A stretch of DNA of 64,000 nucleotides from Cyanidioschyzon merolae. Lineage: Eukaryota. The position numbers and the translations under genes are program-made. The stretch is taken from assembly GCA_000091205.1 (NCBI GenBank), contig AP006484.2; one strand, written 5' to 3'. Below are positions 21,781-52,719 of this stretch, piece after piece (position 1 is the stretch's first letter; each line of letters opens with the position of its first letter). The notes under the pieces were generated by a model. That model saw only the letters and a program-made list of their open reading frames with translations. It was not told the DNA's origin and ran no database searches.

Positions 21781-21781
<1 letters not shown>

Positions 21782-22084: not shown

Positions 22085-22660
22085 GCTGGCCTATTTTTCA
22101 GATGACAAATCGTTTACATTGACCATGGATCGCAGCATTCGGAATGGAGAATGGCTTTCGGGAAAGCGTCCATCATGAAGCACCTCCCTTCAAGTTCCAT
22201 TACCAGTACTTCTTCTTATCAGATATACAGGTCGTTTCGTATGTTGTGTCGTGCGCCGAGCCTGCCGAAAGCGACAGCAATAGCGCATATACCGCTGAAG
22301 CAGGTGCGACACGGAGACAGAACGGCTTTGCCATTACCAATGAAAGCGTCGACTCGAGGCGTGGTTCCTCCGACATAGGGTCGGAGCACATAGTAATTCT
22401 GGGAGCCTGCAAGCTGCCCAGACGGACGTGCAACCTGCGACAGCGCGAAGCGATATACTAGGAGTCCGCTGCGACCAGGGCGACGCCCGGGCGCAGCATA
22501 ACTGCGCTTATTCCCGGAAGGAACTGTGTTGAGGACGAGCTGTTCATGTCTCGCCACAGCACCCGCCACTGGGGGAGCACGAAGCACGAGCCCGGGACAC
22601 TCGTCCGGCTCGCGGGGCCTTCTACCTAGAAGGTAAACTTTCGAAGATACGGGAACTTTT
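22085..22660 (-). repeat. Copy A of a ~590-bp non-coding repeat family (minus orientation), left arm of the head-to-head inverted pair
   Basis: Reverse complement is near-identical to 23428-24015. The track shows identical 122-aa and 105-aa artefactual ORFs on opposite strands in both arms, with one substitution (H/Y). Confidence 0.85.
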
Positions 22661-23427
22661 CACCGTTCCAACGCTCATTATCAAGGTCAAAAGAAACTGT
22701 TATCTAGTTGCTGGTCAGTGTTTAGTTTCTGTTCTTTCTTCCCTAGGAGAATGCTCTCTGCTCGCGGCCTGGCACAACTGGAGGGCCCACCAGTCCGAGG
22801 ACTAGCCTTTGTTGCCGCTGTTTCTATGCAAAGCTCTGCCGCGCGCGCTCCTTCTCTCTTTCTCTCTCTACATTCTCCTGTCCGCGCCCTTGGCCAAAAC
22901 TCTGAAAAGATATCGCTCGCGTCACTCGTGTTCCTATGTAGGGTATATAGATACGCACTCACAGACGCCTCCGGGCCTTTCCTTGACGGGCCGCGTGCTA
23001 CCGGATTCAGCTTCTCCTCGTACACTACGAGCCTGTCATCGTTTTCTGCTGCTGCCTCCGGCCCTCCGTTCGTTGCGGCCAAGGTCCCTGTCATGGGCTT
23101 CCTTCCCCGTCGCTCGAACACCCCGAGTGAACCCACTTTCAGAGCTTCGCCGAAACAACTAGACCTCTCAGACGGGGGTGGTGTGTGTGGGGCTTTAAGA
23201 TACTTGCTCTTTAGTACACAGTCTGTGGCTAGTTTGTTTTGTTGTTTTTTTCTTTTGTGTTTGGGCAGGTGTCTCCGTCTTGATTGGCTGCGTATCGATG
23301 AATATCACGCGTCGTGTCTCATGCCTGCCTGATCTCCCAGGCGCGCTCACCAAGCGAACTATAGAATCACGTACAGAGACTCATGACTAACGCGCAACGA
23401 TATGAAAATTTCCCCCTCTGAGCTAAA

Positions 23428-24015
23428 CGTTAAAAAGAGGAAAAGCTTCCCGTATTTCAGAAAGTTTACCTTCTAGGTAGAAGGCCCCGCGAGCCGGACG
23501 AGTGTCCCGGGCTCGTGCTTCGTGCTCCCCCAGTGGCGGGTGCTGTGGCGAGACATGAACAGCTCGTCCTCAACACAGTTCCTTCCGGGAATAAGCGCAG
23601 TTATGCTGCGCCCGGGCGTCGCCCTGGTCGCAGTGGACTCCTAGTATATCGCTTCGCGCTGTCGCAGGTTGCACGTCCGTCTGGGCAGCTTGCAGGCTCC
23701 CAGAATTACTATGTACTCCGACCCTATGTCGGAGGAACCACGCCTCGAGTCGACGCTTTCATTGGTAATGGCAAAGCCGTTCTGTCTCCGTGTCGCACCT
23801 GCTTCAGCGGTATATGCGCTATTGCTGTCGCTTTCGGCAGGCTCGGCGCACGACACAACATACGAAACGACCTGTATATCTGATAAGAAGAAGTACTGGT
23901 AATGGAACTTGAAGGGAGGTGCTTCATGATGGACGCTTTCCCGAAAGCCATTCTCCATTCCGAATGCTGCGATCCATGGTCAATGTAAACGTTTTGTCAT
24001 CTGAATAATCAGGTG
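23428..24015 (+). repeat. Copy B of the ~590-bp repeat family (plus orientation), right arm of the inverted pair
   Basis: Begins taaacgttaaaaagaggaaaagcttccc... and ends ...ggtcaatgtaaacgttttgtcatctgaataatc. The 5' end faces the 770-bp spacer, as does the 5' end of copy A. Confidence 0.85.
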
Positions 24016-24210
24016 CGCATCGGACACGTGCCTGTCACCTGTCCGCGCGCCGCAACGCCGGATCCGGATGCAGCGATACACGTCGCATAACCCGAGATGC
24101 GGGCGCTTATGCATCACTGCATACACGCATGACGGGCGTCCATGTAACACCGAACGCGCCTTTTTGTTCATTGTCTAGACGAGTTAAAAGGTTGATTATC
24201 CTGTGAATTG

Positions 24211-24888
24211 ATGACGTCGCAGACACTTGAGAACAGCGAGGACACCGAGAGCCGGCGGGTGGGAACGCTAGCCGACCGCGAGCTCGTTGCCGAGCTCATG
24301 TACCCGACCTCCGAAGAAAGCGCGTTCAGTTGTTTCCGGTGCGAAAACTGCGCAAGAACGGTGTGGGTGTGCCTTTGCGGCGCCGAAATAGTGCCCGGAA
24401 CGACACGGACGGAAGATCTTGTACCCTTACGTCGGGAAGGAGGGCGTTTGTCCCTGGTATCCTCGGGGTGGTCGGCTGCGAGTCAGTGTTCCACAGTCGG
24501 GTCGCCGTCGCTAAAAGCGCCTCCAACTCCAACAGCTGGCCATCGGGTGCCATCATGCGATCCTGTGCTGGATGTGAAGTACGCGGCAAGCAATGGACCG
24601 GTGCTCGGCGATGATGGAAAGACGGTGTTTTGCAGCATGGACTGTTATTGGAGTGCGTCGTTGGACCCAAATTGTCAGCGGATTCGCCTGGTTTACGAGA
24701 GAAAGGGCGCGCGCCCTAAGATTCTGGAACGTCGATGCGGTAAACCCGGCGGCACATTGGAGGCGGGAGCGCCTTGTCGTCCGACACGCGGGCGTCCGCC
24801 AACCGATGAGCGAGGAGCACCCGCCGCGTTGCTGCATCGCCGCCCCGATGCCATCGAGTGCAACGCGGGGGCGTCGTCACCGCAGCTG

Positions 24889-24920
<32 letters not shown>

Positions 24921-25158
24921 CCGCGTCGATGTATCCAAGAGGCTGCTCCAGAAACAAGCACAGCTACTGCGAATTCCGCAGTCGACGCGCACTGCAGAAG
25001 AAAACGATGCCTCGCTCTGGGACCGTCTGCGGTGTGGGAACCAGTGCCATCAGTCGGGTGATGTACAGCATGCGATGTACGAGCACCATGCCTACTTTGG
25101 AGGAACCTTCCGCCGAACGGTTGGTGTTGAAGTGCTTCGACGATACACCTGGTGCTGA
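24211..25158 (+). CDS. Hypothetical Cys-rich protein (possible zinc-binding protein)
   Basis: ~315-aa ORF. Cys clusters CFRCENCARTVWVCLCG and VFCSMDCYW, a poly-Ser run, no confident family assignment. The track start at 24208 is TTG; the ATG is at 24211. Confidence 0.3.
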
Positions 25159-26674
25159 TGTCTACCAGGAATGACTGCGAACGGATCTGCCCTTTCCTGT
25201 ACAGGTATACTAGCGTCACGATTCAGACATCCGGATCGGTACTGTTGGGTTTTTTGTGTACGATTTTTGTCTAACCATTCCCCAGTCCATTACTCTGTGT
25301 ACGTGCTCATCATCTATAAAAGATCGCGTAGCGATGATTCAAACACAATCGGATAGGGCGAGCAGCCACAGCTCGGACCTGAACTCGGGGAGCGTTTTCA
25401 TGACGTATCGCGTACAGGCAGTCGCAGGTTTCGGGTCGACGATGAGATCGCAGCGCCGCAGCACCAGCGTCGGCACACCATTACGAAAACGGTGCTCGCA
25501 TCCACCGAAGCTTTCATGAAGGAACAGTGCGTCGCGGACGTCGTCGTTGCATGGCCTTTGGTGGAGTGCGTGCGCTTCAAGGTGTCAACGCGGCTGCCTT
25601 GTAAGCAACAAGCGCGCCCTATGCAGACGTTTGTGGGTACCTCAACTGCATCATGAGGTACACACAGCGACAGCCCTACTCCTGGGCGTTCGAACAGCCC
25701 ATACGACGTCGCCCGGTGGTGAACAGTAGTATATGCTTATCTTGGGTGTCCAGATTTGGCAGCGCACGTACCCGAATTCACTACAATTGCGAATGGATGC
25801 CCACGAGATATCGAGCCTAACGTAAGCATTTGGTCTTCATCATGCGAGAGTGATGCGTGGGACGAGAAGCTCCAGCTCGCATAGATGATGCTGATGCCGC
25901 ATTTTTCGTGCATAGAGCTCCTGTCCTGAGCGGATTCCTGCGAATACCGCAGCCCCCAGTTCAGTGTTTCCCCTCGGACCAGAGCTTTATTGGATCTAGC
26001 GATCCGCCCAGTGGCTCGTCCGCTGCGCACGACTCGAGGAGGCGGGGCGCTGTTTTGCTTTATACGGTTTTGCAATGATAAACCTAACGACGGATCCCTC
26101 TGATGCACCACAATTACCGGAATGAGGACGTATTTGCCTGCAGAGTGTCGGACACGTGTCCATCATCGATCGGAGTAGCGTCTCGCGCGGTGCACGCATT
26201 GCGCACCGTAAGCGCGCCTGGGAGATCGGGCAGTCAACTGACGCGACGCGCGTGCCGTTGTTGAAGGGAAATGGGATCCTGATCAGGAGCGTGTAGCTCT
26301 CTTTTAAAAGTTGTATTTCCGTTAACTTGCTAGGCAAGTGTAGTTTTTCAGCTCACTCGTGTTTCAAACCTCAAGTAAAAATATTCGATTGGGGTTTACC
26401 GGTTTATAACAGAAGCGTTCAAAAGCGTTTTTTTTCCAAAAAAAAAACTAAAAAAGGAAAGCTATGAAAAAAGTTGACGATCTTGGAGGCCCAGTGTCGC
26501 TGGCTGCCAGAAAAAAAAACAAAAACCAGTGCCGAGTACAGAAGAAAAGGAAGAGGAAAAGAAGCAAACAATTTAGAGGGCCTACGTCGTAGGCAGCAAG
26601 AAAGACGCCTGTACGACGAGACGGTGGTGAAAGTCTGTTTTCTTGAACATGACTAGGATCCGTACGATGAAAAG

Positions 26675-28697
26675 TTGCGAGACGCTATCAGAAACCATGT
26701 CGACTCGTTCGCCAAGAGTATTGTCAAGGCGTCGTCAGGATTGGTGCATTTGGCGAGGGAGATGCATTGCAACGTGACGCACATGGAAACGGTCGAGATT
26801 CCGAATGAGTTCTTCGATAAGACCTTTACTCGTCACCTGATGCTTGGTACAGAGGAAACGCGGAAGGAAAATGAGCTGGTGCAAATCCTCCACGAAAAAC
26901 ATCCCCTTTACAGCTTCAATGGTACTCGATACTAGGCTTACCGGGATATTTATCCATATGGGCCCATGAAGTACCCCACGAATCTGAAGGACCATTTGAC
27001 GGTGAACCTCGAACGTTTCATGATACGTGCCGTGGTTACACTCTACCTGGGCCTATCTCGCAATGGAAAATGGGCGATTATCAATGGCGTCACGAACGAC
27101 CGCAAGCGTGAAGATGAGGTCGAATTTGTCGACAAGAAGACATCACGCAGGAGCACGAATGAAGCTTCTGGAATCCGTGCGGTTACAGAAGAGCACCGTG
27201 CGGTACTGGGGTTGGTTCATCCAACAGACAAGATATCAGAGTTGAAAAAAGACAAGGAAAGATACTATCGCCTCGTCCTGCGATATTTCGTGTTTTTGGA
27301 CCGAGAACTCGAACACAAGGTGGAGATGAAGCTGAATGGCGAAAAATGAAGAGTGGGAGAGACCGAAGGCTTTCCTAAAGGGGAAGCGCTTAAACGTGGT
27401 TCCAATGTGCAACATCAGGTCACATTTCGTGACTATCGACTCCAGAATCCTTTACGGCATCATGAAAGGGATCAGTACCGTGTTCAATGTTAGCAGGGAA
27501 TACTTCACCGGCGAAAACCGGGAGACGTACTGGAAGAATATCTTCGATTTCAAACGCCTGAGAGTGAGCAAGCAGAAATTGTTCACTGGGATGATCGAAA
27601 GCGATGGAGTAGCCTTGTGTGTACACGATCGGCGGTTGAAGACAAATCGTCCAGTTCCGCCCTCGGTCTCGCCCGTGCCGAAGCGTGAAGAAAAGGAGGC
27701 GGATCCTGTGACGCAGGAGGTGGAGGATAACGACCTTGTCGTTGATGCGGTGAAGCATGAAGAAAACAAGCAGGCGGATCCTGAGACGCAGAAAGTGCAT
27801 AACAACGACTTTGTCGTTGGCGCGGACCCCGGAAACACAAATATCATAACCATCGCAGTACCCAAACGTGCGGAGGATTGTACTGACGGTAACTTACGTC
27901 AGAAAGACATACGTATTTTTAAGTTCTAAAGATAGAGGCATTACCGAGAATCCGGTATAATAAATGCGAAGAAGAAAATCGGGACATGGAATGCAGGAGT
28001 CAAAGAGCACCTTGAAGCTTTGAGCGAGGTGACGAGCCGCGGAATAGACTTTCAAACTTTTCGGGAGTTCATGAAAGTTCTCGTTCCTCATTGGTAGGCG
28101 CTGTGGGAGGCGTATACAAAGCCCCGGTGGGCTCGTCTGCGTATGAACGTTTACTGCGGGAAACAGCGTGCATTCGCGAACTTTTTCAATGAGTTGAGTG
28201 CCTTCACAGATGATGAAAGTCACAGGCTCGTAGTAGCGTACGGAGCAGGGCGCTGGGCGTCGAGAACAGGTACTACGCCAGTTCCGTCAACAAGAACGTA
28301 CAAGGAGTGCGCGAGGCATTTTGCCGCAATGCCTGTACATGTGTTCCGAACATCGTATACACACCACGACTTGGAGTGCACACTTCTGAAAGTCGAGGTG
28401 GAAAAGTGCCAGCGGAGCCCGGAGGATATCAAATTGTACGGACCGCTGAAGGAAGAGCAAATGGAAAGCAGGGCAAAACTTCGAGAGCTACTTGCGCTTG
28501 TGTGCACAACCAATGATGGCAAGAAACGTATAAAATTCCTGTATCGCGACTTTAAGGCCGCTATCAATATGAGGACATGTGCAGTGCTGGAGAACAGAGC
28601 TCCGGAATGGACAGGAGGGAATTTGTGGGGCAACATCTCAAAGTGGAACTATATGAGAAACAATTGGAACCATTCGTACGTGACCGGTCGAGGATAA
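26675..28697 (+). pseudogene. Pseudogenised TnpB/Fanzor-like nuclease ORF (copy 1)
   Basis: Frameshifts between the N-terminal fragments. In-frame TAA AGA TAG at 27927-27935 (shared with copy 2). Copy-specific TAG at 28095-28097 where copy 2 has GAT. Confidence 0.5.
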
Positions 28698-28812
28698 CTG
28701 GGAAGCGTCTGCACCTCAGTGGATGACCTCGTGTCTGGGGCGCGTCACTCGCCAATATTCTACTCCGCTGGCGGCAGCGTTTTTCTTCTGAAAGGCGTTT
28801 GTTGTTGCTGGC
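26675..28812 (+). mobile_element. Degenerate TnpB/Fanzor-like (RuvC-fold, OrfB_IS605-type) element, copy 1, including the conserved 115-bp 3' flank; 5' boundary uncertain (could extend to ~26400)
   Basis: Fragmented ORFs at 26675-26935, 26966-27349, 27336-27929 and 27936-28697 are co-linear with paralogous fragments at 50918-52555 (minus). RuvC-I-like [16 protein letters not shown] (Asp codon ~27825). RuvC-III-like RDFKAAINM (~28549). Zn-ribbon-like FRTSYTHHDLEC. Reconstructed protein ~670 aa. Homology with copy 2 continues 115 bp past the stop, to ~28812. Confidence 0.5.
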
Positions 28813-28815
28813 GAT

Positions 28816-30543
28816 ATGCTCAGGTGGTCCGGATCTCAACAGGTAACCGACCGGAACCGAGCCGAACAGCATGGCCTGGTCGTGGCGTTCGCTTTTCCTG
28901 CTCGAGCACCGCGCCACAGCGAAGCAACACACGAGCGCTGGACTGGGCTGGCGCAGCGCGAACGCGGCTTGTGTGTACCGTTGAAAGCGACCAAGTGGAA
29001 ACGAGACTTGTGGCACTCGCGAAAGCTTCAAATGCAGGAGCCTGCACAGCGGAACAGAGAGCAGGTGCAAGCGCTAGTAGTAGGCTCTGGAGTGACTGGC
29101 TCTTCGTTCGCGTTCCTGCTGCAGCACGCTGGAATAAGCGATGTGATTTGCACCGAGGCACGAGGTGAAGTTGGTGGAAACCTTATTTCGCGTTCCAAAG
29201 ACGGCTACCTTTGGGAAGAAGGGCCCAACACCTTCCAACCAACACCGGTGATTCTGAAACTCGCGCGAGACGCGGGTCTCGAGTCCGAGCTTGTCTTCGC
29301 CGACGCCAAACTCCCTCGATACGTATACTGGGAGGGGGTTTTGCACGCGCTCCCGAGTTCGCCTGCAGACCTGATCACCGGCCGTTTCCGCCTGTTATCG
29401 AATGCGGGGAAGGCTCGGGCAGCGCTCGGAGCGCTCGGGTTCGTAGGCGCACCCAAACGCGTCGCACGGCAAGCTGGACCCGAGCCCAGCGAGGATGCTG
29501 ACCTAGCAGACGAGTCTGTAGAGGAATTCGTGACTCGCCATCTAGGCCGCGAAGTTTTCCTGAAGATTATAGACCCCTTCGTGAGCGGTGTGTATGCAGG
29601 CGATCCCAGCAAACTCTCCATGGCTGCAGCTTTCAAGCGCGTGTACGCACTCGAGCAGCTTGGCGGAACACGCGGGATTCTCGAAGGGGCGCTCATCCGT
29701 CTGCAACAACGTCGACGGGAACGTCAACGCTGGGCGGCAGAGAATCTCCCCAAGGTGAAAGCGGGTGCACTGGGCTCCTTCCGCGAGGGCCTGCAGCAGT
29801 TGCCGCTCACAGTGGCGACTCGGCTGGGCCCTGAGCGAATGCGAACTCGGTATGCACTGCGCCAAATTGAATACAATGGAGCAAAACGTGGAAAACGTCG
29901 CTATACTGCCCGCTTCGAAACCCCAGATGGCGAACGAGTTATCGAAACAGATGCCCTCATTCTTACGATCCCCGCACATGCGGCGTCACCGCTCTTGCAA
30001 GGTCTGGGTGTCTCTGGGAGTGAGCTGCTCCAGGAAATCGACTTTCCGCCGGTATACTCGGTAACTTTGGCATACCCAAAGTTTGCAGCGCGGTTTCCCC
30101 TAAACGGTTTCGGGAACCTGATACCGCGCTCTGCCGGTATTCGCACCCTCGGGATGGTCTGGTCGTCGAGTTTGTTTCCGGAACGAGCGCCTCCCGATAT
30201 GAATATGGTGCTCTCATACATCGGCGGTGCGCGTGATCCTGGTATCCGCGAATGCACCCCGGATGAAGTCGCTGCCCTCGTAGACGCGGACATGCGTCGC
30301 GTCCTCCTACGTGCCGATGCACCTTCGCCGCAAGTTCTTGGTGTGAGACTTTGGCCGCGGGCGATTCCACAATACAACCGGGGTCACTTGCGGCGCTTGG
30401 AAGCCTGCAACCAGGGTCTACAAGGCTTTCCTGGTCTCTTTTTAGGCGGAAACTATCTGAGTGGCGTTTCCTTCGGTGACTGCGTACAGTGGGCGTACGA
30501 TAATGTGCCTCGAGTGCTGACGTTTCTGCAGGAGACGGCTTGA
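28816..30543 (+). CDS. PPOX: Protoporphyrinogen IX oxidase (HemY-type, FAD amine-oxidase fold)
   Basis: ALVVGSGVTGSSFAFLLQHAGISDVICTEARGEVGGNLIS (dinucleotide-binding GxGxxG), ...YLWEEGPNTFQP..., and a conserved C-terminal HemY-like region. The first ATG at 28816 gives a ~72-aa leader (possible transit peptide); an alternative ATG is at 29032. Confidence 0.8.
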   Translation: MLRWSGSQQVTDRNRAEQHGLVVAFAFPARAPRHSEATHERWTGLAQRERGLCVPLKATKWKRDLWHSRKLQMQEPAQRNREQVQALVVGSGVTGSSFAFLLQHAGISDVICTEARGEVGGNLISRSKDGYLWEEGPNTFQPTPVILKLARDAGLESELVFADAKLPRYVYWEGVLHALPSSPADLITGRFRLLSNAGKARAALGALGFVGAPKRVARQAGPEPSEDADLADESVEEFVTRHLGREVFLKIIDPFVSGVYAGDPSKLSMAAAFKRVYALEQLGGTRGILEGALIRLQQRRRERQRWAAENLPKVKAGALGSFREGLQQLPLTVATRLGPERMRTRYALRQIEYNGAKRGKRRYTARFETPDGERVIETDALILTIPAHAASPLLQGLGVSGSELLQEIDFPPVYSVTLAYPKFAARFPLNGFGNLIPRSAGIRTLGMVWSSSLFPERAPPDMNMVLSYIGGARDPGIRECTPDEVAALVDADMRRVLLRADAPSPQVLGVRLWPRAIPQYNRGHLRRLEACNQGLQGFPGLFLGGNYLSGVSFGDCVQWAYDNVPRVLTFLQETA

Positions 30544-31414
30544 TGCAGCCTCATGAAGACGCTCACACGTGAATCACTGACGCAGCGATGCATGAACGCA
30601 CGGAATCTGGATACACCCCAGAACCGAGCAACGTCCCCAGTGTCGTAACCGTTGGTGTTGTCGCACACACGAACGCTGCAGATATAGAACTGAGAATCGA
30701 ACAGCATCCCTAGGATTGAAACCGTTATTGTTACGGTAAACAACAACAATGCGTTTATGCGTGTAAAGCACCCGGTTGCTGTCCGAAGTTGCCAACTTGG
30801 TGTCCGGTTCAACGCATGAGCCGCACGGAAAGCCGCAGATTGCATGCCGTAGCGGATGCGATGACGTGCAACGGTACTCAGTGTTGCTTCCGTGCCGACG
30901 TACGCCCCCAGATACCCCGAACAGCACCCAAACATGAGGCTGTGAGCGTTCCCTCGCGATATCGGCAACAGTGTCAGCGGGCTGAGCGCTATCGCGCCGT
31001 ACGCATCCTGAACGTGCGTTGGTCAATGCGCGCCCCACACTTGAACCGAGCTTTGATTGGATGCCAGGATCAGTGGAGGCGGCCTTTCATGCCCAGGGGC
31101 CAAGCATTCGATTCTAAAACGATTCCGTGAGGCGCCTCCGCTCATCCGTCCGGGAAACGGTTTCCAGTGCTTTCCAATGATCAGCGAGAATCGAGCGCAC
31201 AGGTCCATTGTGCAACCTGAAACCCGTAAGCCAACCTGCAAGACGTCATGCAAATGTGTGAGGAAATCCTGCAAGTTGACGTTCCTGATCATGCATTGCT
31301 ACCCGTGTTTGCGATGATGATCACCATCGAAATAAACTAGCTTCGGTCGCGGGCGTGATACACATCACTTCAGGGCAATAATCGAGAGCGCCGCGAGCCA
31401 ACGCAGTCGACTAT

Positions 31415-31978
31415 TCAGGAAACGTCGGCATCCTGCGGACCCTTGCGCTCTTCATGTTGATGTTGAGCGGCGGTTGGCGGCCGCCACCGCAGCACCAGCG
31501 CCTGTGCTTGCGGCATCCATCGTCGAGGATAGTAGTTGTCGATGACTTCGTCGTCGGATTCGAAACCACAGCTGCGATAAAACGCAACCAACTCTGTAGC
31601 TTGCAAAGGTGTGTGCAGGAAGACCTCGCGCACCTCCAGTCCATCAGGCAAGCATGGCGTCAGTACGCGTAGCAGCAGACGACTCCCGATACCTTGACCT
31701 TGAAAGACGGCATCAACCGCTACCGCATCAATGTACACCTGGGCACAACACGTGCGACGAGTCGCCACCCGGGCCAGGAGCACACCGACAACCTTCTCTG
31801 CATTGCCGGCCAGTCGACAGAGCGCCACCTGAGCAAGTCCAAGCCGAGCATCCCGTTCATAGGCTTCCTCGAGCCGCTGATGAAGACGTGGCAATGGCAC
31901 CAGGAGCGTGCCTCTGAGCAGCGCTAGCACTTGGCTCCCGTGTTGGCGCTCCAAGGGTGCAAACTCGACCCCGTGCAT
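31415..31978 (-). CDS. GNAT-family N-acetyltransferase
   Basis: 187 aa. Acetyl-CoA-binding signature QGQGIGSRLL (Q/RxxGxG/A), YIDAVAVDAVF, FYRSCGFE. ATG at 31978. Confidence 0.6.
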   Translation of the reverse strand: MHGVEFAPLERQHGSQVLALLRGTLLVPLPRLHQRLEEAYERDARLGLAQVALCRLAGNAEKVVGVLLARVATRRTCCAQVYIDAVAVDAVFQGQGIGSRLLLRVLTPCLPDGLEVREVFLHTPLQATELVAFYRSCGFESDDEVIDNYYPRRWMPQAQALVLRWRPPTAAQHQHEERKGPQDADVS

Positions 31979-32842
31979 GACGCTGAAGCCGAGGTTGTGC
32001 TCCTTTCAACGACGAAACGAACGTCGAAGACTGCCTCGGTCCGTTGAGAGCGACTTGCTGTTCCCGCTGCTTTTCTGTATAGTTCTTAACGGAAGCGCTG
32101 CTGCCAGCTCCTCGAGAACGCGCCGCAAGCGCACGTCCCGAACGACTCTCGAGACTCTTCAAGTCCGGAAGCTTTCTCCTCAATGGGTCTAGTACAGGGC
32201 TTTGGCTCGGGTATTCTGTTGTAGAGCTCCGAACACCTTCTACGAGCTGCTTTGTAGACACTCGTTTGTACGAGCTCGTCCCGGGTCGAGCGAAACAAGG
32301 TACGGGTGCTGCCTTTCGCAGAAGCGCCTTTTACGAGCTGTTCTCGTGACACCGTGAGGCTTGTTTCGCTGGATCCAGCTCAAGCAAAACAAGTTCAGAA
32401 CGCTTGCAGCGGAATATCCCGCGGGACACCTCGATCGCTGCAGCAACTGCCTAGTCGGGTAGCTTCACATAAAACATACCAACTTGTAGGACGACAACGT
32501 TCTGACCCGAACTATTCTTTCAGGCGATAGGAAGCGTGTCGAGCTCGCCAGGCGCCTGAAGTACCAAGTGCCTGTGCCGGCTTCCCGCGGGACCAGGAAG
32601 ACACCGAGCGCACGCGCCAGTATATGCGCTACTCGTTTAGACATGATCCCCAGAAAAACAGCACCTGACGCGACACATATTCGCCAAGCGTCGGACTCGC
32701 AGTGAAAACGCTTCGACCGACCAGCAGCAGACTCCCTCAGCTGACCGCATCACACGTCAGGACTTGTAGACTGCTATAACGCATGGTATGTGGTCGAGCA
32801 TCTCGCCGCTATGCCTGCCATATGAAGATACAGGCGCATCGC

Positions 32843-35173
32843 TCAAGGTTTCCAGCCCCAGACTTCGAGCACGACACATTCAAACTCGCCAAGGGATACC
32901 TCATTCGCGGGCGCATCGAGACAGAGCGGCGGGTTATCGAAGGTTTCGCTGTACCCCGAAGTTCCGGATAGCAACGCGTCATCCAGTGAGAGCGCGAAGT
33001 GGGCGCCCCCGCCAACGGCGATGAAACGCGGTCCCGAATACTGGAAGAATGTATTCTTGCCGGTCCAGGGATAAGGTTCAACGTGTCCCTGAGCATCTGC
33101 TCGGAAGACGAAACACTCACCGGTCCCGTAGAAGGTGCTCGCGTTCGATCGCCAAGTCTCTGTGACGAAGGCCCCGAAAACATGACCAGCACGATCCCGC
33201 ACAGCAACAACGCTCTGCGAAGCGTGCTGGGTACGGTGGTAAAACGTATAGAGCGATGCCCCATGAATCGCGGTGGAGTACACGAGACACCAGACCGCGT
33301 CTCGATAGCGATGTGGCAGTGCGTTTCGTAGGGACTCGAAATGATCAGGCGAGAGCACTTGCGAGTGAAAATTCGCCGCTAATGTCACTGTGGCTGTTGC
33401 TGGAGCAGTGACAGCGGTAGTGGCGCCTGCTGGAGGCAGCGCGACCAATGACGACGACGACGTCGACGACACCACTCTTGACGTATGCATTCGAGACGAT
33501 CCCTCAGGTGCTTCTGAGCATGTATGCGCGGGATACGCAGCGACGTCGCAAGTCGATGACGTCCTCGTTCTAGCCGGACTCTCAGATGCCTCCCCGGATA
33601 CATGCGCACGGTCCATAGCCGAGTCGTGCGCTTCAGGCGCTCCGCGTGTCGCAAGAGGCGCAGACTTGTCTGCTGCGGTGCTTCTTGTCTCTAAAGCCGG
33701 CGAAGATGCCGCAGCACGCATTGCGCTCGAGTGGACGCGAGCATGGGCACTTCCATCATCGGCCGATTCCCGCTCTAATGATGGAACCGGGAAAGCGTCT
33801 GTCGTCGCTTTAGCAGCTGGCTGGCTCGGAGGCCATGCATCGACTCCACTCGCTGGGCTCCATTGGCTACTGATGTTGTCGTCGTCGTCGTCGGGAGCCG
33901 AAGCCTGCGACCATACCCACCGGCTTAGCATCCGACCAAAACTGCCCCAGAGATCATTTCCCGTTCCAGCGTCTTTCGTCGACTGCTCCGATCGGGCAAT
34001 GTCGATCGGATTTGTTGAGACATTCGCAGCCGAGGCAGCGCTGGGAGCTTGCCTCTCTTCCAGCTCATCGACGGTGCGCTGCTGGACAGTGATCTGCTCC
34101 AATAAAGCCGATATGGTCGTATTGCGGCAGAGAAACGCAAGTCTCTCCGTATCTGCTCCAGAATCCGTTTGAGCATCTGCTCGAGGTGTGCACGGCGAGC
34201 AGTCCACCTCCAGCCATGCCCATTCCGCGGGATTGATGAGCTGCTGGAAATCCTCAGCACAAGCCGGACGAATCTTCCAGCGTCTTCGAGTTGGTCCCAA
34301 TGGAAGTGTGATGTTATTCGCCTTATTGTCGTCGTCGTCGTCGGTATGAAGCGCGTCGGCTCCCAGCTGCCGCTCCAGGATGCACTGCAACACTGCAAAA
34401 GCCGACGGATTCGTGGGCGGAACAAGGTTGACAGAGCCTTCAAACGTAGCGTTGCCTACCCGAATCCAACCCACAAGGCTTTGTTGATGGCTGTTCGATG
34501 AATGATGATCCGCATGACTCGTGGCAGAACGTGCTGAGGTCGCTGGAGACGCGCTCCGGCCACTACTCTGTGGTGTGGCCGGCTGGATCGTGCACCAAGT
34601 TTCTGGACCTGCTTCTCTCACCGCGTCCTGCAAATAACGCTGGAGCAATTTTTGGAGCCGAACAATGTCAGCACGCAGGCTCTCTACTTCTCTTTCCACT
34701 AGTCTCCGACTGAAACGCATCTGGTCTACCTGGGTTCGCATCGCGGCGAGCTCCGCTTCCCAGCGATGTCTTTCCCAGGAACGACGTTGGTCGTCCATAC
34801 ATCCAGCAGCTTCTAAAGCTGCATCTGTGCGGATAACAGGTGATTGTTCGGGTGTCCGCTGCTGTTGTTTCTGCCCCACTGATACCCGCGGTTGCGTACC
34901 CGGTGGTGACAGTTGCTGGTCGGCGGAAGCGTCGGGTTGCTGCGGGTCAGGTCGAGTCCCTTTTCCTGCCTCCGAACGCGACGAGGCTTGCGGCTCCTTT
35001 CGATTATCGAGCACAAGAGCGCTCTTGCCCGAGTTCGTGTAGTTCAGGGGCGCTTGCTGCACGAAGCGGAACGGCTGTTCCAGGGAGACGCGTTCGCGCT
35101 CGTTCACAGTACCAGCAGCAGCAGCAGTTGCTGCTGCTGCTGCTGACTGCCTGGTACGTTCGTCCACATCCAT
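32843..35173 (-). CDS. TLDc-domain protein (OXR1/NCOA7-like C-terminal domain) with a long low-complexity N-terminus
   Basis: 776 aa. C-terminal ~160 aa LPHRYRDAVWCLVYSTAIHGASLYTFYHR...GAFVTETW...GTGECFVF...NTFFQYSGPRFIAVGGG...GEFECVVLEVWGW matches the TLDc domain pattern. ATG at 35173. Confidence 0.65.
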   Translation of the reverse strand: MDVDERTRQSAAAAATAAAAGTVNERERVSLEQPFRFVQQAPLNYTNSGKSALVLDNRKEPQASSRSEAGKGTRPDPQQPDASADQQLSPPGTQPRVSVGQKQQQRTPEQSPVIRTDAALEAAGCMDDQRRSWERHRWEAELAAMRTQVDQMRFSRRLVEREVESLRADIVRLQKLLQRYLQDAVREAGPETWCTIQPATPQSSGRSASPATSARSATSHADHHSSNSHQQSLVGWIRVGNATFEGSVNLVPPTNPSAFAVLQCILERQLGADALHTDDDDDNKANNITLPLGPTRRRWKIRPACAEDFQQLINPAEWAWLEVDCSPCTPRADAQTDSGADTERLAFLCRNTTISALLEQITVQQRTVDELEERQAPSAASAANVSTNPIDIARSEQSTKDAGTGNDLWGSFGRMLSRWVWSQASAPDDDDDNISSQWSPASGVDAWPPSQPAAKATTDAFPVPSLERESADDGSAHARVHSSAMRAAASSPALETRSTAADKSAPLATRGAPEAHDSAMDRAHVSGEASESPARTRTSSTCDVAAYPAHTCSEAPEGSSRMHTSRVVSSTSSSSLVALPPAGATTAVTAPATATVTLAANFHSQVLSPDHFESLRNALPHRYRDAVWCLVYSTAIHGASLYTFYHRTQHASQSVVAVRDRAGHVFGAFVTETWRSNASTFYGTGECFVFRADAQGHVEPYPWTGKNTFFQYSGPRFIAVGGGAHFALSLDDALLSGTSGYSETFDNPPLCLDAPANEVSLGEFECVVLEVWGWKP

Positions 35174-35596
35174 GAGTGGGCAGCAGAGCGCGCTTCAGCG
35201 TAACCTGCGTGGACGCTCACGGCATCCAGCTCTGTCGAGCGCTGTTTGCTCGCTGGTCACGAAACGCTCGAGCGCTTGCGCCTTACGGCGACTCGCGGGT
35301 CTCGAGCTTCGGTAGTCACTGTGATAGCGTTCAGACAAAAACCTGATGAAAAACTTGCACACCGATCTGGTCGAAGCGGAGAAGCTCAGCGGCGTTATGA
35401 GGGAGAGGAATCCCGTCTGTAAAGTCAGGTACGATGCGGATGGTGAGCCATTCTGGTCTTTCAAGTAAATTTTATTGCACCATTGCTGCAGTGTATAGCC
35501 GGAGATCGAAACCACGATGCAACGTACCGTATCGAAAACGAACAGACACGAACTTTTACATGGTAACGAGATAACAATTTCGTTCGACCTGTGCGG

Positions 35597-36190
35597 TAAA
35601 CGTTAGAGGGGAAAGCTTTCCGAATCGTCGAAAGTTTGCGTTCAGAGCGAAAGGTCCCTAGAACTGTACGAGTCTGCAGGGCTAGTGCTTCATGCTCTCA
35701 CAAGTGGCTGGTGCTTTGGCGAGACGTAAGCAAATCGTCCGCAACAAAGGTTATTCTGGGACTAGGAGGGGGTAGGCTGTGTCGGGGCGTCGCCCTGGTC
35801 GCAGTGGACTCCTAGTACATCGCTTCGGGCTACAGGCAGTAGGTCTGTCTCCGCAGCTTCCTGGCTCCCGGCATGCTTATGTACTTCGACCCTCTGTCCG
35901 GTGAGCCACGCCACGCGGAGATGCCCGCAGTGGTATGGCAACGCCGTACAGTGTCCTTGATGCATCCGCTCCAGCGGCATAACTGCTATTACGAATGCAG
36001 CAGGGGAGGTACTCGGTGCAAGATAGAACGTATGGAACAACCAGTACATCCGAAAGGAAGTATACACAATGGGAATTGCAGCTAGGGTGCAGCATGATAG
36101 ACACTTTCCCCAAAGCCAATACCCATGCATTCCGCATCCTGGAATCCAAGGTCAACGTAAACGTTCTGTCATCGGCAAATAATCCGTTGC
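35597..36190 (+). repeat. Copy C of the ~590-bp repeat family (diverged, plus orientation)
   Basis: Shares with copy B the 5' block taaacgtta..gaaagctttcc..gaaagttt, a 33-mer gggcgtcgccctggtcgcagtggactcctagta (1 mismatch), GTGCTTC.TGCTC...AGTGGC.GGTGCT.TGGCGAGAC, ggaggtactcggtgca, atccgaaaggaagt, and the 3' block ggtcaacgtaaacgttctgtcatcgg.aaataatcc. Confidence 0.75.
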
Positions 36191-36198
36191 GGTCTTAT

Positions 36199-36625
36199 CC
36201 ATCCTGTCTATGATATCCAATATTATACGTTTTCAGAATCTTCCTCGATGCAGCGTGTCCATAGAGCTCACTGCCATCCTGTCTATAATGTCCAATATTA
36301 ATCGTTTTCAGAACCTTCCTCGTTGCAGCGTGTCGATGGCGCTCACTGCCATCCTGTCTATAATGTCCAATATTATCCCTATTCAGAACCTTCCTGAATG
36401 CAGCGTGTCGATGGCGCTCACTGCCACCCTGTCTATAATATCCAATATTATCCCTATTCAGAATCTTCCTCGATGCAGCGTGTCGATGGCGCTCACTGCC
36501 ATCCTGTCTATAATATCCAATATTATCCCTATTCAGAATCTTCCTCGATGCAGCGTGTCGATGGCGCTCACTGCCATCCTGTCTATAATATCCAATATTA
36601 TCCCTATTCAGAACCTTCCTCGATG
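36199..36625 (+). repeat. 75-bp minisatellite, ~5.7 tandem units, immediately 3' of repeat copy C and in frame with the bromodomain ORF
   Basis: Unit cagcgtgtcgatggcgctcactgccatcctgtctataatgtccaatattatccctattcagaaccttcctgaatg (75 bp = 25 codons). The track ORF translates MQRVDGAHCHPVYNIQYYPYSESSS three times. Confidence 0.9.
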
Positions 36626-38632
36626 CAAGTCCCCGCGCCATTCCCGCATACTCCGCTGCGCCCTCTGGTTCGTATTTGCGACGTGCAGCGCACCAGTTCC
36701 ACCTGGATGCGTCGTACCCGCCAGCATGCACCCTTTGCTGGTAACAGTATATCCTATAGCGCTCGGGAAGATGACGGTTTCCCCGATAGAGAGGATCCCG
36801 GCGATCTCGCCCTCCCGGACGACAGCTGGTCGGCGACGGGCGACGACACCGAGTCCAGTGCAGCGACGACTCGGCGCCAGCGGGTAACGCGGCGGCGAGG
36901 TCGGGCTTCGTCTCCGAGCACCGACACCAGTGAGCCTGCGCGTCAACGACAGCGACGCTCGCGCACCTCTCACATCAGTGTCGGTGACGAGTCCGGACAA
37001 CGACCGACTATCCGGACGCGCTCGGCATCGTCGCTAGAAGCAGGCGGCGTGCCCCGAGCCACTTCATCTGATCAGGATACGTTTCGGAATACCGTGGCTA
37101 TTCTCATTGAGCAGGTACGGCAGCATGATCGTTATGGGTTCTTCTGTGCCCCGGTTGATCCGGAGGAGGCGCCTGACTATCACGAAGTGATCCCAGAGCC
37201 GATGGATCTCGGTACCATGCAGAGGAAGCTCGAGACAGGCAAATATCGGCGCCTCGACGAAGTTGAGCGTGACCTAGATCTTATCTGGCGCAACTGTTTC
37301 ACATATAATCCAACAAATAGCATTTACTACCGCGAGGCGGCACGAATGCAAAAGTGGGCGCTGAAACGGGTCCAGTGGGCGCGTCAGCGACTCTGCGGCA
37401 TTACGGGAGCGCCCAGTCCCGCCGAAGGACAAAGCTTCAGTACGTCAACGCATTCTCGTGATGAAAAGGTACAGCACACCCATTCGAGGATGGTGAAAGG
37501 CGTATCGCGTGGGTCCGCGGTGGCTCTGGACTCGGCACCGCGGATGACGGTACGACTCCAGACAGAACGTCATCGGGACCCGGCTGCAGTGCCCGGCACG
37601 AGCTCGGAGCTGCCTACCGCAACCGAAACTGAAGGCAAACCGAAACCCGTTGCCGAAATGGATGTTGTTCTGGATGAGGCGCTGGACCCAGAGGCATCGT
37701 ATGCGGTGGCAGCGCAGGACCCTGGCGCCTTTATCGAGCGCGTATGGCGAGCGTTCGTGACTCGCCAAGAGCGCTTGCGTATCGAGAAGGAGCACGAACG
37801 ACTGTATCACTATCCGCGTCACAGTTCGGAGGGCGAGCGTGCTGCTGCTGACCTAGCCAGGACGATGCTTTCGCAATGGCTCGGGAAAACGATCAAACGG
37901 GCTCCGAACGATGCGGAGAAATATTTGCTGGAAATTCTTTCCGCTGCAGAGCTACCCGCCGAAACTCTCCAGCGAATGGCAACAGCATTCACGAGTCAGC
38001 AGCAGAACGGAGCAACTGCAGCAGCATCTGTTGAGGAAAACCCGTCTTTGAAGTCGAGGCCTACAGTCGGACGTGGTACACATGCAGCCGCTTCGCATGA
38101 CGATGCCCAGACCCGAGGAGCGAGTGCTTCAGCAACGGACGACTCGCCCGAGACATCAAAGGACGCGTTCATCGCCTCGCGTTGGTATGCCTTGCGACGC
38201 TCTCTTGCAGCGCTCCGGTTGGCCCAGATACAGAACGCACCCCTTTCCGAGCAACTCCGCCGCTATGATACGGTGCTCGCGCTCCTAGCACGCCAGTTGG
38301 AGACCATCCCGCCACGATTGCTCTTAGCCGAGGGTGGAGTCGAGAGCATCCGCGCATTTGCGCAGCGCCTTGTCCAATATGAAGATTCTCGTGCCGAAGA
38401 CGCAACGCCAAATGCTGAGAGTTCTGGACAAACACCGATGGCGAGTGATCCAGATGCGACGCAGCCGCAAAAGGGTGCTACAGATGGCCATAGCGTCGGT
38501 CATCACCCGGCAGCGACACCAGGAGCCGCTCATGCAAACGATGGGGGCGCTCAGACGGATCGCCCGCATGACATCAAAGTCGACGGCGTTTTTTCTGCGG
38601 GGAACGCAACTATGCTCAGACCGCAGGTTTAG
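36398..38632 (+). CDS. Bromodomain-containing protein (start codon uncertain; N-terminus may include minisatellite-encoded 25-aa repeats)
   Basis: Bromodomain FFCAPVDPEEAPDYHEVIPEPMDLGTMQRKLETGKYRRLDEVERDLDLIWRNCFTYNPTNSIYYREAARMQKWA (conserved Y...N pair). Alternative ATGs lie downstream of the repeats (~36623, ~36695). Confidence 0.7.
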   Translation: MQRVDGAHCHPVYNIQYYPYSESSSMQRVDGAHCHPVYNIQYYPYSESSSMQRVDGAHCHPVYNIQYYPYSEPSSMQVPAPFPHTPLRPLVRICDVQRTSSTWMRRTRQHAPFAGNSISYSAREDDGFPDREDPGDLALPDDSWSATGDDTESSAATTRRQRVTRRRGRASSPSTDTSEPARQRQRRSRTSHISVGDESGQRPTIRTRSASSLEAGGVPRATSSDQDTFRNTVAILIEQVRQHDRYGFFCAPVDPEEAPDYHEVIPEPMDLGTMQRKLETGKYRRLDEVERDLDLIWRNCFTYNPTNSIYYREAARMQKWALKRVQWARQRLCGITGAPSPAEGQSFSTSTHSRDEKVQHTHSRMVKGVSRGSAVALDSAPRMTVRLQTERHRDPAAVPGTSSELPTATETEGKPKPVAEMDVVLDEALDPEASYAVAAQDPGAFIERVWRAFVTRQERLRIEKEHERLYHYPRHSSEGERAAADLARTMLSQWLGKTIKRAPNDAEKYLLEILSAAELPAETLQRMATAFTSQQQNGATAAASVEENPSLKSRPTVGRGTHAAASHDDAQTRGASASATDDSPETSKDAFIASRWYALRRSLAALRLAQIQNAPLSEQLRRYDTVLALLARQLETIPPRLLLAEGGVESIRAFAQRLVQYEDSRAEDATPNAESSGQTPMASDPDATQPQKGATDGHSVGHHPAATPGAAHANDGGAQTDRPHDIKVDGVFSAGNATMLRPQV

Positions 38633-40387
38633 GGAAGCGCGGAAAAATGTCGCCAATTCGTGCATTCGCTTTCCTGAGGCGTAACGTTTGTCGCCCAACG
38701 CGCTTCGTGATCGGCAGTGATGGCTCCTCACTTCACCAGATACGTCTCTGAAAGCCGCATGACTCACGATAAACGCCTTGTTTGCTTCCGAAGAGTTGCG
38801 AGCGGCACTTGTGTAGCACCGAGGCGGCGTCCATGTGCGAATGCTTTCAGCGACACGCGCCGGCTTGCTACTGTGTCCGAAGCTCATTGCGCAGCTGCGG
38901 TGGTTTCGTGAACGTCACCACCTAGACGCGCGTGGCAAGTGCGCTGGAGGTGTCGTGGAGGTCCCTTTGGTTATCGCCGTTGTGTTTGCTGGCGAAGCAG
39001 ATGGATGAACCGAGGATTGCCCGCTGTCTGGTGGGTATGCTGGGGCTCCACCGCGCTTCGGCATCGGAACGCTGATGGAGAACATTGCACTGAAACCGCT
39101 TCCAAGAAAGACACGGCGTCATCGGACTCCAACATGGAAAGGCACCGACACGCTGGGAAGACTAACCGGATTGAAACCGCTTCCACGAGAGATGCGGCCC
39201 CGTCCATGACTGTCTTTGGGGAACTCTCCATATGGGCAAGTCCTCACTGAACAGGACACCTACGCAAATATACTCTGATGACGAGCTCGCCATATGTCAT
39301 GCGTGGTCGGATCCAGTAACACCATTGCCCTCTGGATGCCGGTTCAACATCCTTGCGCCCCAATAGAAGACCAGATATGGACAGGGAATAGACTCCGGGT
39401 GTACATCCACGGCAGAAAACTCGGATGTGCACGCTAAAGCTGGGGTCTCTCGTATGCGTTATCATCAACACCAGCCGTTGCAGGCATTCTTCGTTGGATA
39501 CTTGCTCATCCTCCACTGTCCTCGGGTTTCAATACGCCGGTCGCGACTGCTCCCGGAGGTCCGTTGTCAGCGGTCGAAACGTGTTCATTGCTGGGAGTGA
39601 GTCCCGATCTCTCTGCTTCCGCTTGTTATTGTGGAGTTTCATGTACACGTAAAAGTCGCGATCTGCGTTTCGCTTCCCGTTGTTGTCTTCTTCCTGTACA
39701 GCCTCGTCGTGCACATCGCAACGGTGAAACTTGACTGTGGTCAGGTGCTTCCAAGAGTCGGCTACACACCATGCTCCGAAGGCGGAGCTGTATCGCGTGA
39801 ACGCTTGGTTCATCGCTCGACTCGGGCGCTCGAAGGGAACAAGAGGCCCCGCTCAATGTCGTAATCCGGTTTCACGCCAGATACCATACCCGACGATCCG
39901 GGGCTTTTTCTTCCAGGTATTATTGTCGCCGAGTAGTCTGTCTGCTGCACAAGTAGATGCAGGCGGTTCCATTCGGCAGAGGATTTGTGGTGCGCGATAA
40001 TGCCCACCATGAAACATGTACCGGAAGCAGCATCCAGTTTGGAGAAGAATCCGAAAATCTTGGATCCGTCTACGCTTGCTTCGTGGAAACCGGTGACGCG
40101 CTCTCCACTGGAAGCGAATGTTGCGGTGGCTAAATTACGAGTCCAAGACTTTTTTCCATGCAAACAGAAGAGACTCTGCACTCAACCAGCATATCCGGTT
40201 AGAGGGATCGTGTCGCTGCTGCATTCAGTTTCGCGGATGGCCATCGGAAAGCCTAGGATTTGTATTTCGAACGGATTCCTTTCATGGATGTCGAAAATAA
40301 GGGGTTTTTCGACATGAGCTTGCACGCAAGCAGTCAAGTAACGACGTCTACCGTATTGATTGCCGCCTATCCAGCGGCGTTGATCGC

Positions 40388-40410
40388 CACACACATACAT
40401 ACACACACAC
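40388..40410. repeat. (CA)n microsatellite
   Basis: Direct reading: cacacacatacatacacacacac. Confidence 0.85.
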
Positions 40411-41340
40411 GAGTTGCCTTGAAAGAGAAAGATCGAAACGTTAAACACAGCGTAATTCGAGCATGCTACGTGTAACGAAAACAGAATAATGGAGGCTTGA
40501 ACATATGACCTGGAAGAGAATGTCAGTTGTTGAACGAACCCGTATTCAAGTTCGTCGCAGATCATCTTTATTCCGATCACGGAACGTATCCCAGTGGTAA
40601 AAGTTCGACACTGCATTTTGTGAAACACGTCCAGGAATCTCCATAAAAGTACCACTATATTTGCATCCGGCAGCATTGAGTACTGCACGTCGACTGTCCA
40701 CGCTGCACATTTATGAACAATTTCGGAACGAAAAACGAATACGGCGGGATGAGGTCGAGCAGTTCGGCGTTCCTTGTGCATCTGACACTTGTTTTATGAT
40801 TGCGTGACAAGACGCGAGACTTTGCACCACCTGGTCCTGGTTTATGATGTAGTATTCGTCTTACAAGCAACGTGAGCAACCTCCTATCCTGGAGACCACA
40901 CCATCACGCTATTGAATATTCGAACATGCACTGGAAGGTATACTCTTCAACGTCTTCATTGTTTGAAGCTCAGTACTAGGCGAGTAAAGTCTCTGGCTGT
41001 GGAGCGCAAGACACAGAGTTCCGGTGTCAGTGAATCGCTGGCCATCGCCTTGCTCTCGGTGCTGGCCTCAGGAGTACACGCGTACGCTCAGCGATACTGT
41101 CAAATATCAAACGCTGATCACGGAATGCAATGATGGACTGCTCTGGCTACCATGGATCATTATCATGATCATTGGGTCAATGGTTCCTGAAAAAACCGCA
41201 CAATAGATATCGCTGAACTTGCATGCGATCGAGTCTCCTATGAATTCCTTGAATAGACCGAATACACACGAAATACATTTCTCTATCCCGCGAAACGAGC
41301 ACCCATGCGACGATTCCAAGGACTTGTTCGGTAAACGAAA

Positions 41341-44431: not shown

Positions 44432-44937
44432 CAAAACCCACGACACTCAGGATAGTACAGTCTTGTGTGGCTTGCTTCGAGCGCTCTCGCGCCCACTGTT
44501 CAGCGTTCGGGCTGGAGAGGCGGCGCGGCTCAGGTGTGATGCCCCGAGGTCGCCACGCTGCCTCTCCCTGCAGGAGAGTAACTCCGTTCGAAGGGTTTCG
44601 AGCCTTCAATTGCCCTGCAAATCAAAAGCAAAGTCCTGCCCCGCGCCAGAGACGCTGCAGTGAAACGTCTGCGCCGCGTCCTGGAAGCTCACCGGCGGGA
44701 GACACCGAGCGCACGCGCGTTGGCGCCTAGTCCAACGATGAACCCTAATCTTGTTCGACGCTGGCGAAGAACTCTCCAACACTTTAGCGCTCCAGCAAGC
44801 GAACTTGCCGCCGTTTGCCTCTGAAAGAAACGTCCTAGTAGTGAGCTCGTGGAGCACGATTGCTATGAAAGTCGACGTTGGCCAGCACGACTGATACGGA
44901 TCCAGCCTCGCGTTCGGGTCAGCCAAGTAACCCGGAT

Positions 44938-45101
44938 GCGATAAACTGTATACATAGGGATGAAATGGGACAGAATTCTCCTCTTCGTCACCTGAACGCC
45001 AACTTGATTGCTAAACGATGCGATAAACTGTATACATAGGGATGAAATGGGACAGAACTCTCCTCTTCTTCACCTGAACGCCAACTTGATTGCTAAACGA
45101 T
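44938..45101. repeat. Tandem duplication, 2 x 82 bp
   Basis: gcgataaactgtatacatagggatgaaatgggacagaa(t/c)tctcctcttc(g/t)tcacctgaacgccaacttgattgctaaacgat occurs twice back-to-back. Confidence 0.9.
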
Positions 45102-52690: not shown

Positions 52691-52719
52691 CAGAATGATC
52701 ATCACCCCCGATCCCGTAT

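Follow-up and report, generated by a model that had tools for sequence, protein, structure and literature searches.

The window, that is, the whole 64-kb stretch of DNA that was analysed, carries eukaryotic, intron-poor genes on alternating strands, among them genes with TLDc, bromodomain, bromodomain plus GATA, UDP-glucose dehydrogenase (UGDH), DJ-1 and Cpn60/TCP1 assignments. A protoporphyrinogen-oxidase-like amine oxidase encoded here matches its nearest named relative, from Cyanidiococcus yangmingshanensis, at 78%, and those of other red algae at about 50%; identical sequences were found in JGI metagenomes only. The DNA is that of a hot-spring red alga of the Cyanidioschyzon/Cyanidiococcus type, probably not of strain 10D. 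Dispersed over the window is a non-coding repeat family of ∼640 nt, which is genuine and well outside chance expectation: searched with a profile of copies A, B and C, the window copies appear at E-values from 1e–69 to 1e–237 (7e–208 for copy C). From its sequence match the repeat appears to be the already catalogued TE-N2_CMe, equal to the first ∼635–644 bp of CMe-1A. The latter is a ∼3.2-kb element bearing a Fanzor1 gene (734 aa, eukaryotic TnpB-like) (PMC3627910). Its consensus, to which the positions below refer, was taken from Additional file 2 of Bao and Jurka 2013 (PMC3627910). The features are as follows.

Copy A: 22101-22741, minus strand; solo element matching CMe-1A positions 2-640 at 81.7% (blastn against the published consensus).
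Copy B: 23308-24001, plus strand; CMe-1A positions 697 down to 2, 81.1% over 704 nt (blastn against the consensus).
Copy C: 35530-36174, plus strand; solo element of the putative TE-N2_CMe type, CMe-1A positions 644 down to 1 in the presumed retroposon (LINE) sense, 79.8% over 652 nt.
LINE ORF2 C-terminal coding-end homology within copy C: approximately 35640-35768, plus strand; profile positions 87-215, no ORF in C.
Copy D: 52566-52992, plus strand; CMe-1A positions 423 down to 1, 76.1% over 427 nt; putative retroposon module of a composite CMe-1A copy.
Fragment E: 21838-21998, plus strand; CMe-1A positions 248 down to 90, 81% over 161 nt; profile E-value 2.5e–29.
Possible old 3' fragment: 7035-7249, plus strand; profile positions 409-625, nhmmer E-value 6.4e–7, marginal.
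F1, putative Fanzor-only unit: 26209-28797, plus strand; CMe-1A positions 657-3169, 83–84%, without the putative retroposon module.
F2, putative Fanzor1 pseudogene part: 50817-52563, minus strand; CMe-1A positions 1399-3147, 85.3% over 1752 nt.

An earlier note, made from the letters of the window, had described a family of four members. The multicopy repeat stands, but the count does not, since fragment E and the marginal stretch at 7035-7249 had gone unlisted; the latter was not recovered by blastn with the CMe-1A consensus. The limits of two copies also had to be moved. Copy C, previously placed at 35597-36190, runs from 35530 to 36174, with its 5' end 67 nt further upstream, and copy D occupies 52566-52992 instead of 52720-53025. 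Copies A and B do form the inverted pair that had been proposed; their bodies are 98.4% identical over 568 nt, while the adjacent heads share 59%. When copy C was searched against the window, copies A, B and D came out as 67–72% identical to it, together with the fifth fragment next to A. Copy C terminates in ...GTAAACGTTCTGTCATCG, after which an A-rich stretch follows. Copy B keeps ∼55 nt of the leader of a Fanzor unit beyond the boundary at which solo elements stop, and the motif that it carries at 23308-23350 is found again in inverted form where F1 starts, at 26208-26250. We also considered a trypanosomatid SIDER/Pr77 retroposon, suggested by size, GC and a CCCTGG..CAGTGG arrangement; it was excluded by the strand-alternating genes (GATA, bromodomain and UGDH among them), and further by the match of the family to the Cyanidioschyzon merolae CMe-1A consensus.

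According to Bao and Jurka (2013, Mobile DNA 4:12), TE-N2_CMe is 95% identical to CMe-1A positions 1-635 (PMC3627910). The proposed equivalence of our repeat to TE-N2_CMe is drawn from that statement combined with the match to CMe-1A 1-644, and not from a direct comparison with the TE-N2_CMe consensus itself. For C. merolae ∼150 copies of CMe-1A and ∼70 of TE-N2_CMe are reported, at ∼80% identity to the consensus; neither has terminal inverted repeats (TIRs), no target-site duplications (TSDs) could be established, and the elements are classed as 'unknown' (PMC3627910). In the window, repeat copies show 76–82% identity to CMe-1A 1-∼640, and the Fanzor parts 83–85%. The family and its link to Fanzor1 are therefore already known, having been published in 2013, and annotation of the repeat as such is routine. 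The earlier suggestion of a non-autonomous partner of TnpB/Fanzor-like elements agrees with this published relationship, in which the 5' 635 bp of CMe-1A are TE-N2_CMe (PMC3627910).

The assignment of F1 and F2 to Fanzor1 comes from their 83–85% match to CMe-1A, which Bao and Jurka class as Fanzor1 (PMC3627910), and is probable on that basis. The F1 reading frame is broken into at least four pieces, in which RuvC-like motifs, including RDFNAAINIR, can be recognised by eye, and the F2 frames are fragmented as well. ORF fragments with TnpB-type motifs recur near many repeat copies. With the consensus protein, Pfam returned only a sub-threshold Cas12f1-like TNB hit (E-value 0.51), and phmmer against PDB gave no match. 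That one repeat copy touches a TnpB-like copy, as had been noticed, is correct: D adjoins F2, a TnpB/Fanzor-like pseudogene, contiguously at 52563/52566, and the two together make up a single CMe-1A copy with an internal deletion that lacks consensus positions 424-1398. The 3' end of F1 lies 19 nt ahead of the start codon at 28816; in this very compact genome only tens of bases separate the ends of the Fanzor units from the start codons of host genes.

In the consensus the repeat occupies positions 1-644, upstream of the Fanzor ORF at 906-3108, and the strand that corresponds to the LINE sense (see below) is antisense to this ORF. Repeat and Fanzor gene thus stand head to head, around the palindromic CTATATAG. 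Units consisting of the Fanzor part alone begin at consensus 648-657 and end at 3169. The Fanzor unit and the repeat do not resemble each other at their 3' ends.

When metagenomes were scanned with a degenerate 30-mer taken from the repeat, 58 contigs came out. On them lie 61 copies with a length of 400 nt or more; grouped at ≥93% identity they make 21 clusters, each cluster being one locus seen in several samples. The downstream flanks and genes of the 21 clusters are unrelated, so we treat them as independent genomic insertions; for the same reason the possibility that they are orthologues from different species rather than paralogues was rejected. Contiguous repeat–Fanzor composites were counted at seven of the 21 loci; in all, about half of the loci are composites with the Fanzor unit. 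Seven loci carry solo elements that end at consensus positions 633-644, a discrete boundary, and three others stretch slightly past it, to positions 661, 668 and 697.

What is new in this analysis is the tie of the repeat body to the 3' end of a LINE that encodes an endonuclease and a reverse transcriptase. About 550 of the ∼640 nt are homologous to the LINE 3' end, namely to the last ∼40 codons of its ORF and the 3' UTR. At five paralogous places (L021/27, L025, L037/39/44, L060 and L063-65) an ORF extends directly into profile positions 87-215, with the remainder of the repeat downstream of it on that strand. These repeat-like tails directly follow RVT_1 ORFs (nhmmer E-values 9e–39 to 2e–66), and the junction is identical in the five paralogous LINE copies. 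RVT_1 is found in the ORF and its homologues at E-values of 3e–17 to 2e–23, above the Pfam cut-off, and the upstream ORF carries Exo_endo_phos, an APE-type endonuclease domain, at 31.3 bits against a Pfam cut-off of 24.5. The best PDB matches of the LINE proteins are R2 and LINE-1 ORF2p. All homologues of the RT ORF are fragments known from metagenomes alone, with non-LTR motifs such as FADD and YLG. On contigs L060 and L063 the order is RT, repeat tail, A-run, and the LINE copies are 5'-truncated at five different points.

The LINE-linked tails are 82–88% identical to each other (LINE bodies, 88–94%) and 62–68% identical to the repeat consensus. Because their mutual identity is high and that to the repeat is only 62–68%, we regard them as an integral part of the LINE and not as inserted repeat copies. 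The repeat itself probably represents a separate, older lineage that has its tail in common with the LINE. Its head of ∼85 nt is private, with a TATA-like motif at the boundary. No trace of the head was seen in the LINE from the RT to the 3' end, nor on the single contig extending into the endonuclease region; the 5' end of the LINE was not recovered.

Several hallmarks of retroposition accompany this homology. Most copies end in ...GTCATCG followed by GAAAAA(A), AAAAAAAA or similar, the A-rich terminal runs being short (5–8 nt) and degenerate. Copies with an intact 3' end and a truncated 5' part cover consensus positions 1-405, 2-566, 4-596 and 4-273. In one copy (c13, at 6200-6847 of contig L046) an A7 run is present, and the 12 bp ATCACCTCGGGT stand duplicated on either side of the copy, at 6185-6196 and 6848-6859. 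A duplication as long as this did not occur in any of 200 shuffles (P-value < 0.005), and the orthologue on L030 retains nine of the 12 nt. If c13 and one of its two duplicates are taken out, the flanks form a continuous alignment with CMe-1A consensus ∼2970-3050; since they rejoin as Fanzor sequence, c13 was inserted into an older Fanzor unit. This is the one clear TSD that a search of 20 scorable loci produced, and the other 19 showed nothing above shuffles. The absence of TSDs elsewhere is plausible at ∼20% divergence and matches the finding of the 2013 paper. Neither copy C nor the TSD-flanked copy on L046 has terminal inverted repeats between its ends.

Taking together the match to CMe-1A, the tail homology to an RT-encoding LINE, the A-rich ends, the truncations and the single TSD with its reconstructed empty site, we consider it probable, at roughly 70%, that the family is a LINE-dependent, non-autonomous retroposon, a product of LINE-tail retroposition and not an ncRNA gene or a MITE. 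RNA of the element would be recognised by the LINE enzyme through the common 3' tail and copied into nicked target DNA by target-primed reverse transcription, a process expected to produce copies with a short A-rich tail and a target-site duplication, many of them 5'-truncated. We infer that mobilisation was most likely in trans, by the LINE enzyme; the mode in which the element is transcribed belongs to the same inference. The non-autonomous multicopy mobile element of the earlier note is hence confirmed, and of its two suggested likenesses the SINE-like one fits (LINE 3' tail, A-rich end, 5' truncations, one TSD), while the MITE-like one fails for lack of TIRs. The family is old, with ∼80% identity to the consensus and 70–78% between copies; it predates the divergence of strains and decays at about the rate of its surroundings. 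In sum, the additions are modest: probable assignment of an unclassified TE to LINE-dependent retroposition, and its near-constant placement just upstream of co-oriented genes.

The composites and the Fanzor-only units stand against this reading; the latter (648/657-3169) cannot arise via retroposition in the sense of the repeat. On a DNA-level explanation, the repeat might be the terminal left-end module of CMe-1A as a Fanzor1 transposon moving at the DNA level, with solo copies arising as deletion derivatives or as non-autonomous DNA elements served by a transposase, and with the LINE likeness acquired by secondary capture. The seven contiguous composites among 21 loci speak for it, as do the discrete outer ends of composites, at consensus 1 and 3169 in many copies, and the published class 'unknown' with no TSDs (PMC3627910). 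Moreover, two loci whose flanking genes are unrelated carry one and the same composite with an internal deletion (∼493-1083). Since the deleted form is identical at both, a composite can be copied as a unit, and at times it may be the 3-kb composite that moves. Yet the solo copy with a 12-bp TSD, an A7 tail and a seamless empty site speaks against it, and the family has neither TIRs nor a transposase gene. The ∼550-nt homology covers a LINE coding end and 3' UTR, oriented with the A-rich run at the 3' end, and solo copies stop at the discrete positions 633-644 rather than at scattered deletion points. The two composites in which both ends are present have no TSD and so lend no positive support. 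On balance we think this explanation unlikely.

The composite CMe-1A as a whole might itself have been spread by the LINE machinery from a long transcript that runs from antisense Fanzor through the repeat to the A-tail. We rate this as quite unlikely. Several features are compatible with it: composites look truncated from the Fanzor side, at positions 661, 668, 697 and 1084; the shared deleted composite sits at two unrelated loci; and tails were repeatedly inserted into Fanzor leaders, where LINE or repeat tails sit co-oriented at positions 648, 703 and 737. Were composite retroposition true, an RNA-guided nuclease gene family would have been amplified to ∼150 copies as an antisense passenger of retroposition, without a DNA transposase, which would bear on the spread of eukaryotic Fanzor genes where no transposase can be recognised. 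A weaker variant would have outward-reading transcripts of the repeat supply guide-like RNAs.

Position relative to genes raises a further explanation, that copies were kept as exapted promoter or 5'-leader modules, or merely tolerated, as regulatory DNA spread by duplication. At no fewer than 14 of 16 scorable loci, the first 600 nt beyond the repeat 3' end contain the start of a long ORF in the same orientation, and upstream neighbours are divergent. All four large copies of the window conform to this: B precedes the gene starting at 24208, C that at 36398, D that at 53163, and A the chaperonin gene. The TATA-like motif at the 5' boundary of the repeat also fits a promoter role. Nevertheless, we see no sign of purifying selection and the downstream genes are unrelated; besides, the distance of 100–500 nt from repeat to start codon leaves space for the gene's own promoter. 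The bias in position and orientation may equally reflect the sites that the LINE endonuclease prefers, or the selective removal of insertions elsewhere in a compact genome. Between orthologous copies, substitutions at conserved positions (0.0096 per site) are no rarer than the comparison range of 0.009–0.017, and the repeat diverges about as much as its flanks once a few outlier flanks, which inflate the pooled flank divergence, are set aside. Comparisons of orthologues with paralogues and of repeat with flanks gave no signal of host-level constraint, with low power (121 changes). Exaptation on this evidence seems very improbable, and we read the placement upstream of genes as target preference or tolerance, not as demonstrated exaptation.

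The block-wise conservation proposed earlier, which had been read as the pattern of a structured RNA or of transposon termini with internal protein-binding sites, does not hold when one copy from each of the 21 independent loci is compared. Conserved fractions in 15-nt windows range from 0.71 to 0.88, the longest run of columns conserved at ≥90% is 5 (shuffle mean 5.3), and the lag-1 autocorrelation of conservation, 0.05, does not leave the null range; window means show an only weakly raised variance (P-value = 0.02). As divergence is near uniform across these loci, the apparent blocks are a small-sample effect of comparing three effectively independent copies. The motif given earlier as GTAAACGTT actually reads TAAACGTT and occurs at element positions 85 and 644, also in the family consensus. 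It should be noted that it does not make subterminal direct repeats: the 5' occurrence is ∼60–85 nt inside the element, and sharing an 8-mer is at chance level, in that 92% of shuffles of the family consensus also hold a repeated 8-mer (mean 3.2 per shuffle).

Rfam gave no match at the gathering threshold for the whole window, nor at E ≤ 1 for copy C, and ARAGORN found no tRNA in 21500-36500. RNAalifold with 20 copies gave essentially no consensus structure: in 724 columns it placed only 19 pairs, and the covariation term was –0.24 kcal/mol. A 7-bp long-range stem, GGCGTCG...CGACGCC, is retained in most copies, and where it varies it shows G–U wobble or breakage and no compensatory pairs; being near-invariant, it counts neither for nor against structure. 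Known guide RNAs of TnpB and Fanzor overlap the 3' end of the nuclease ORF. An omega-RNA-like guide or scaffold for Fanzor1 whose transcription leads out over the element end, or some other multicopy ncRNA, would draw on this stem and on a formal likeness to the scaffold-then-guide layout of TnpB (the repeat 3' end is the outer end of CMe-1A and reads into the flank), but it is barely conceivable given the empty Rfam and covariation results, the near-uniform divergence, conserved positions that are not protected between orthologues, the location of the repeat 5' of the nuclease ORF, on the opposite strand and not at the guide-RNA 3' end, and the pseudogene state of most Fanzor copies here; the earlier ideas of a multicopy ncRNA gene and of an RNA component of Fanzor fall with it.

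Among known systems, the repeat resembles MITEs in being short, multicopy, non-coding and gene-proximal, and differs from them in its A-rich 3' end and 5' truncations and in having neither TIRs nor a TSD of fixed length. With omega-RNA/reRNA modules it shares the linkage to a TnpB-family gene, the position at one element end and the outward reading; it lies, however, at the wrong end and on the wrong strand, has no conserved structure or covariation, and derives from the coding end and UTR of a retrotransposon.

The closest parallels, if the family is a LINE-dependent retroposon, are SINE/LINE pairs with a common 3' tail, as in the Okada model (UnaSINE1/UnaL2, CR1-dependent SINEs), and deletion derivatives of LINEs such as RIME/ingi, NARTc/L1Tc, SIDER and HAL1. 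Like both, the repeat shows homology in its 3' part to the 3' end of an RT-encoding LINE of the same genome and has an A-rich end, 5'-truncated copies and, at one copy, a TSD, and many of its copies are old, degenerate and near genes. It departs from a canonical pol III SINE in having no tRNA-, 7SL- or 5S-like head. In the LINE sequence recovered, its head does not occur at the 5' end, which is why the repeat cannot be named a 5'+3' deletion derivative as RIME is. It departs from both groups in that the tail is only ∼65% identical to the extant LINE and that the repeat is often fused head to head with a Fanzor gene. Likeness to the published TE-N2_CMe and CMe-1A is nearest of all: the same length of ∼635–644 bp, the same absence of TIRs, occurrence both solo and joined to Fanzor1, and a divergence of window copies equal to that reported for genomic copies. 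What differs from the published account is the link made here to a LINE 3' tail, which runs antisense to the orientation published, and one documented TSD.

The composite element CMe-1A, in which a repeat module of about 640 nt is joined to a Fanzor1 gene, has been copied as a unit: the same internally deleted form, which lacks consensus positions ~493–1083, was recovered at two metagenome loci (L019/L047/L048 and L008/L050/L051) whose downstream genes are unrelated. At the latter locus, samples diverge by 8–14% in the Fanzor part but by <1% in the repeat; gene conversion could account for this inequality, as could chimeric assembly.

Gene conversion also enters the picture for A and B, the inverted pair of repeat copies in the window. 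Their bodies (22093–22660 and 23442–24009) are 98.4% identical over 568 nt, the 85-nt heads adjoining these bodies share only 59% identity, and the outer flanks are unrelated. This pattern looks like recent conversion between two old inverted copies, rather than duplication. As for the resident LINE, whose 3' tail is homologous to the repeat, no intact autonomous copy was seen among the recovered LINE ORFs because all of them are fragmented; one copy (L061) carries an internal duplication of ~300 nt (4634–4950 and 5016–5253) immediately before its reverse transcriptase domain.

Other repetitive features of the window are as follows.

36199–36627, tandem array of a 75-bp unit, 5.7 units, 93% matches
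44935–45098, tandem duplication of 82 bp, two units, 97–98% identical
18479–18867 and 40063–40466, inverted repeat pair, arms of 59 and 112 nt, 71% identical

The 75-bp array starts 25 nt past the end of repeat copy C and overlaps the 5' start of a bromodomain ORF (36398–38632). Its copy number is polymorphic, since the orthologous region of contig L058 is shorter by ~450 nt, that is, by 6 units. The inverted repeat pair has no relation to CMe-1A and may represent a further old repeat family.

Fanzor units lie close upstream of host genes. One ends 19 nt before the start codon of a protoporphyrinogen-oxidase-like gene (the gap spans 28797–28816); the second stops 74 nt upstream of the start codon (gap 50743–50817) of a small ORF, which by eye looks like a candidate for ribosomal protein S21. 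In L021 (8511–9761) an EAP30-domain ORF directly continues the Fanzor reading frame. Given these distances and the read-through, host promoters or leaders may be located inside the Fanzor-bearing element. The leaders of Fanzor units themselves contain inserted 3' tails of the LINE or the repeat, at three consensus positions (648, 703 and 737).

L063, 2985–2997, tail insertion, co-oriented
L021, ~11983, tail insertion, co-oriented
L009, 5746–5761, tail insertion, co-oriented

These insertions mirror the family's preferred placement, a short way upstream of ORFs that share its orientation.
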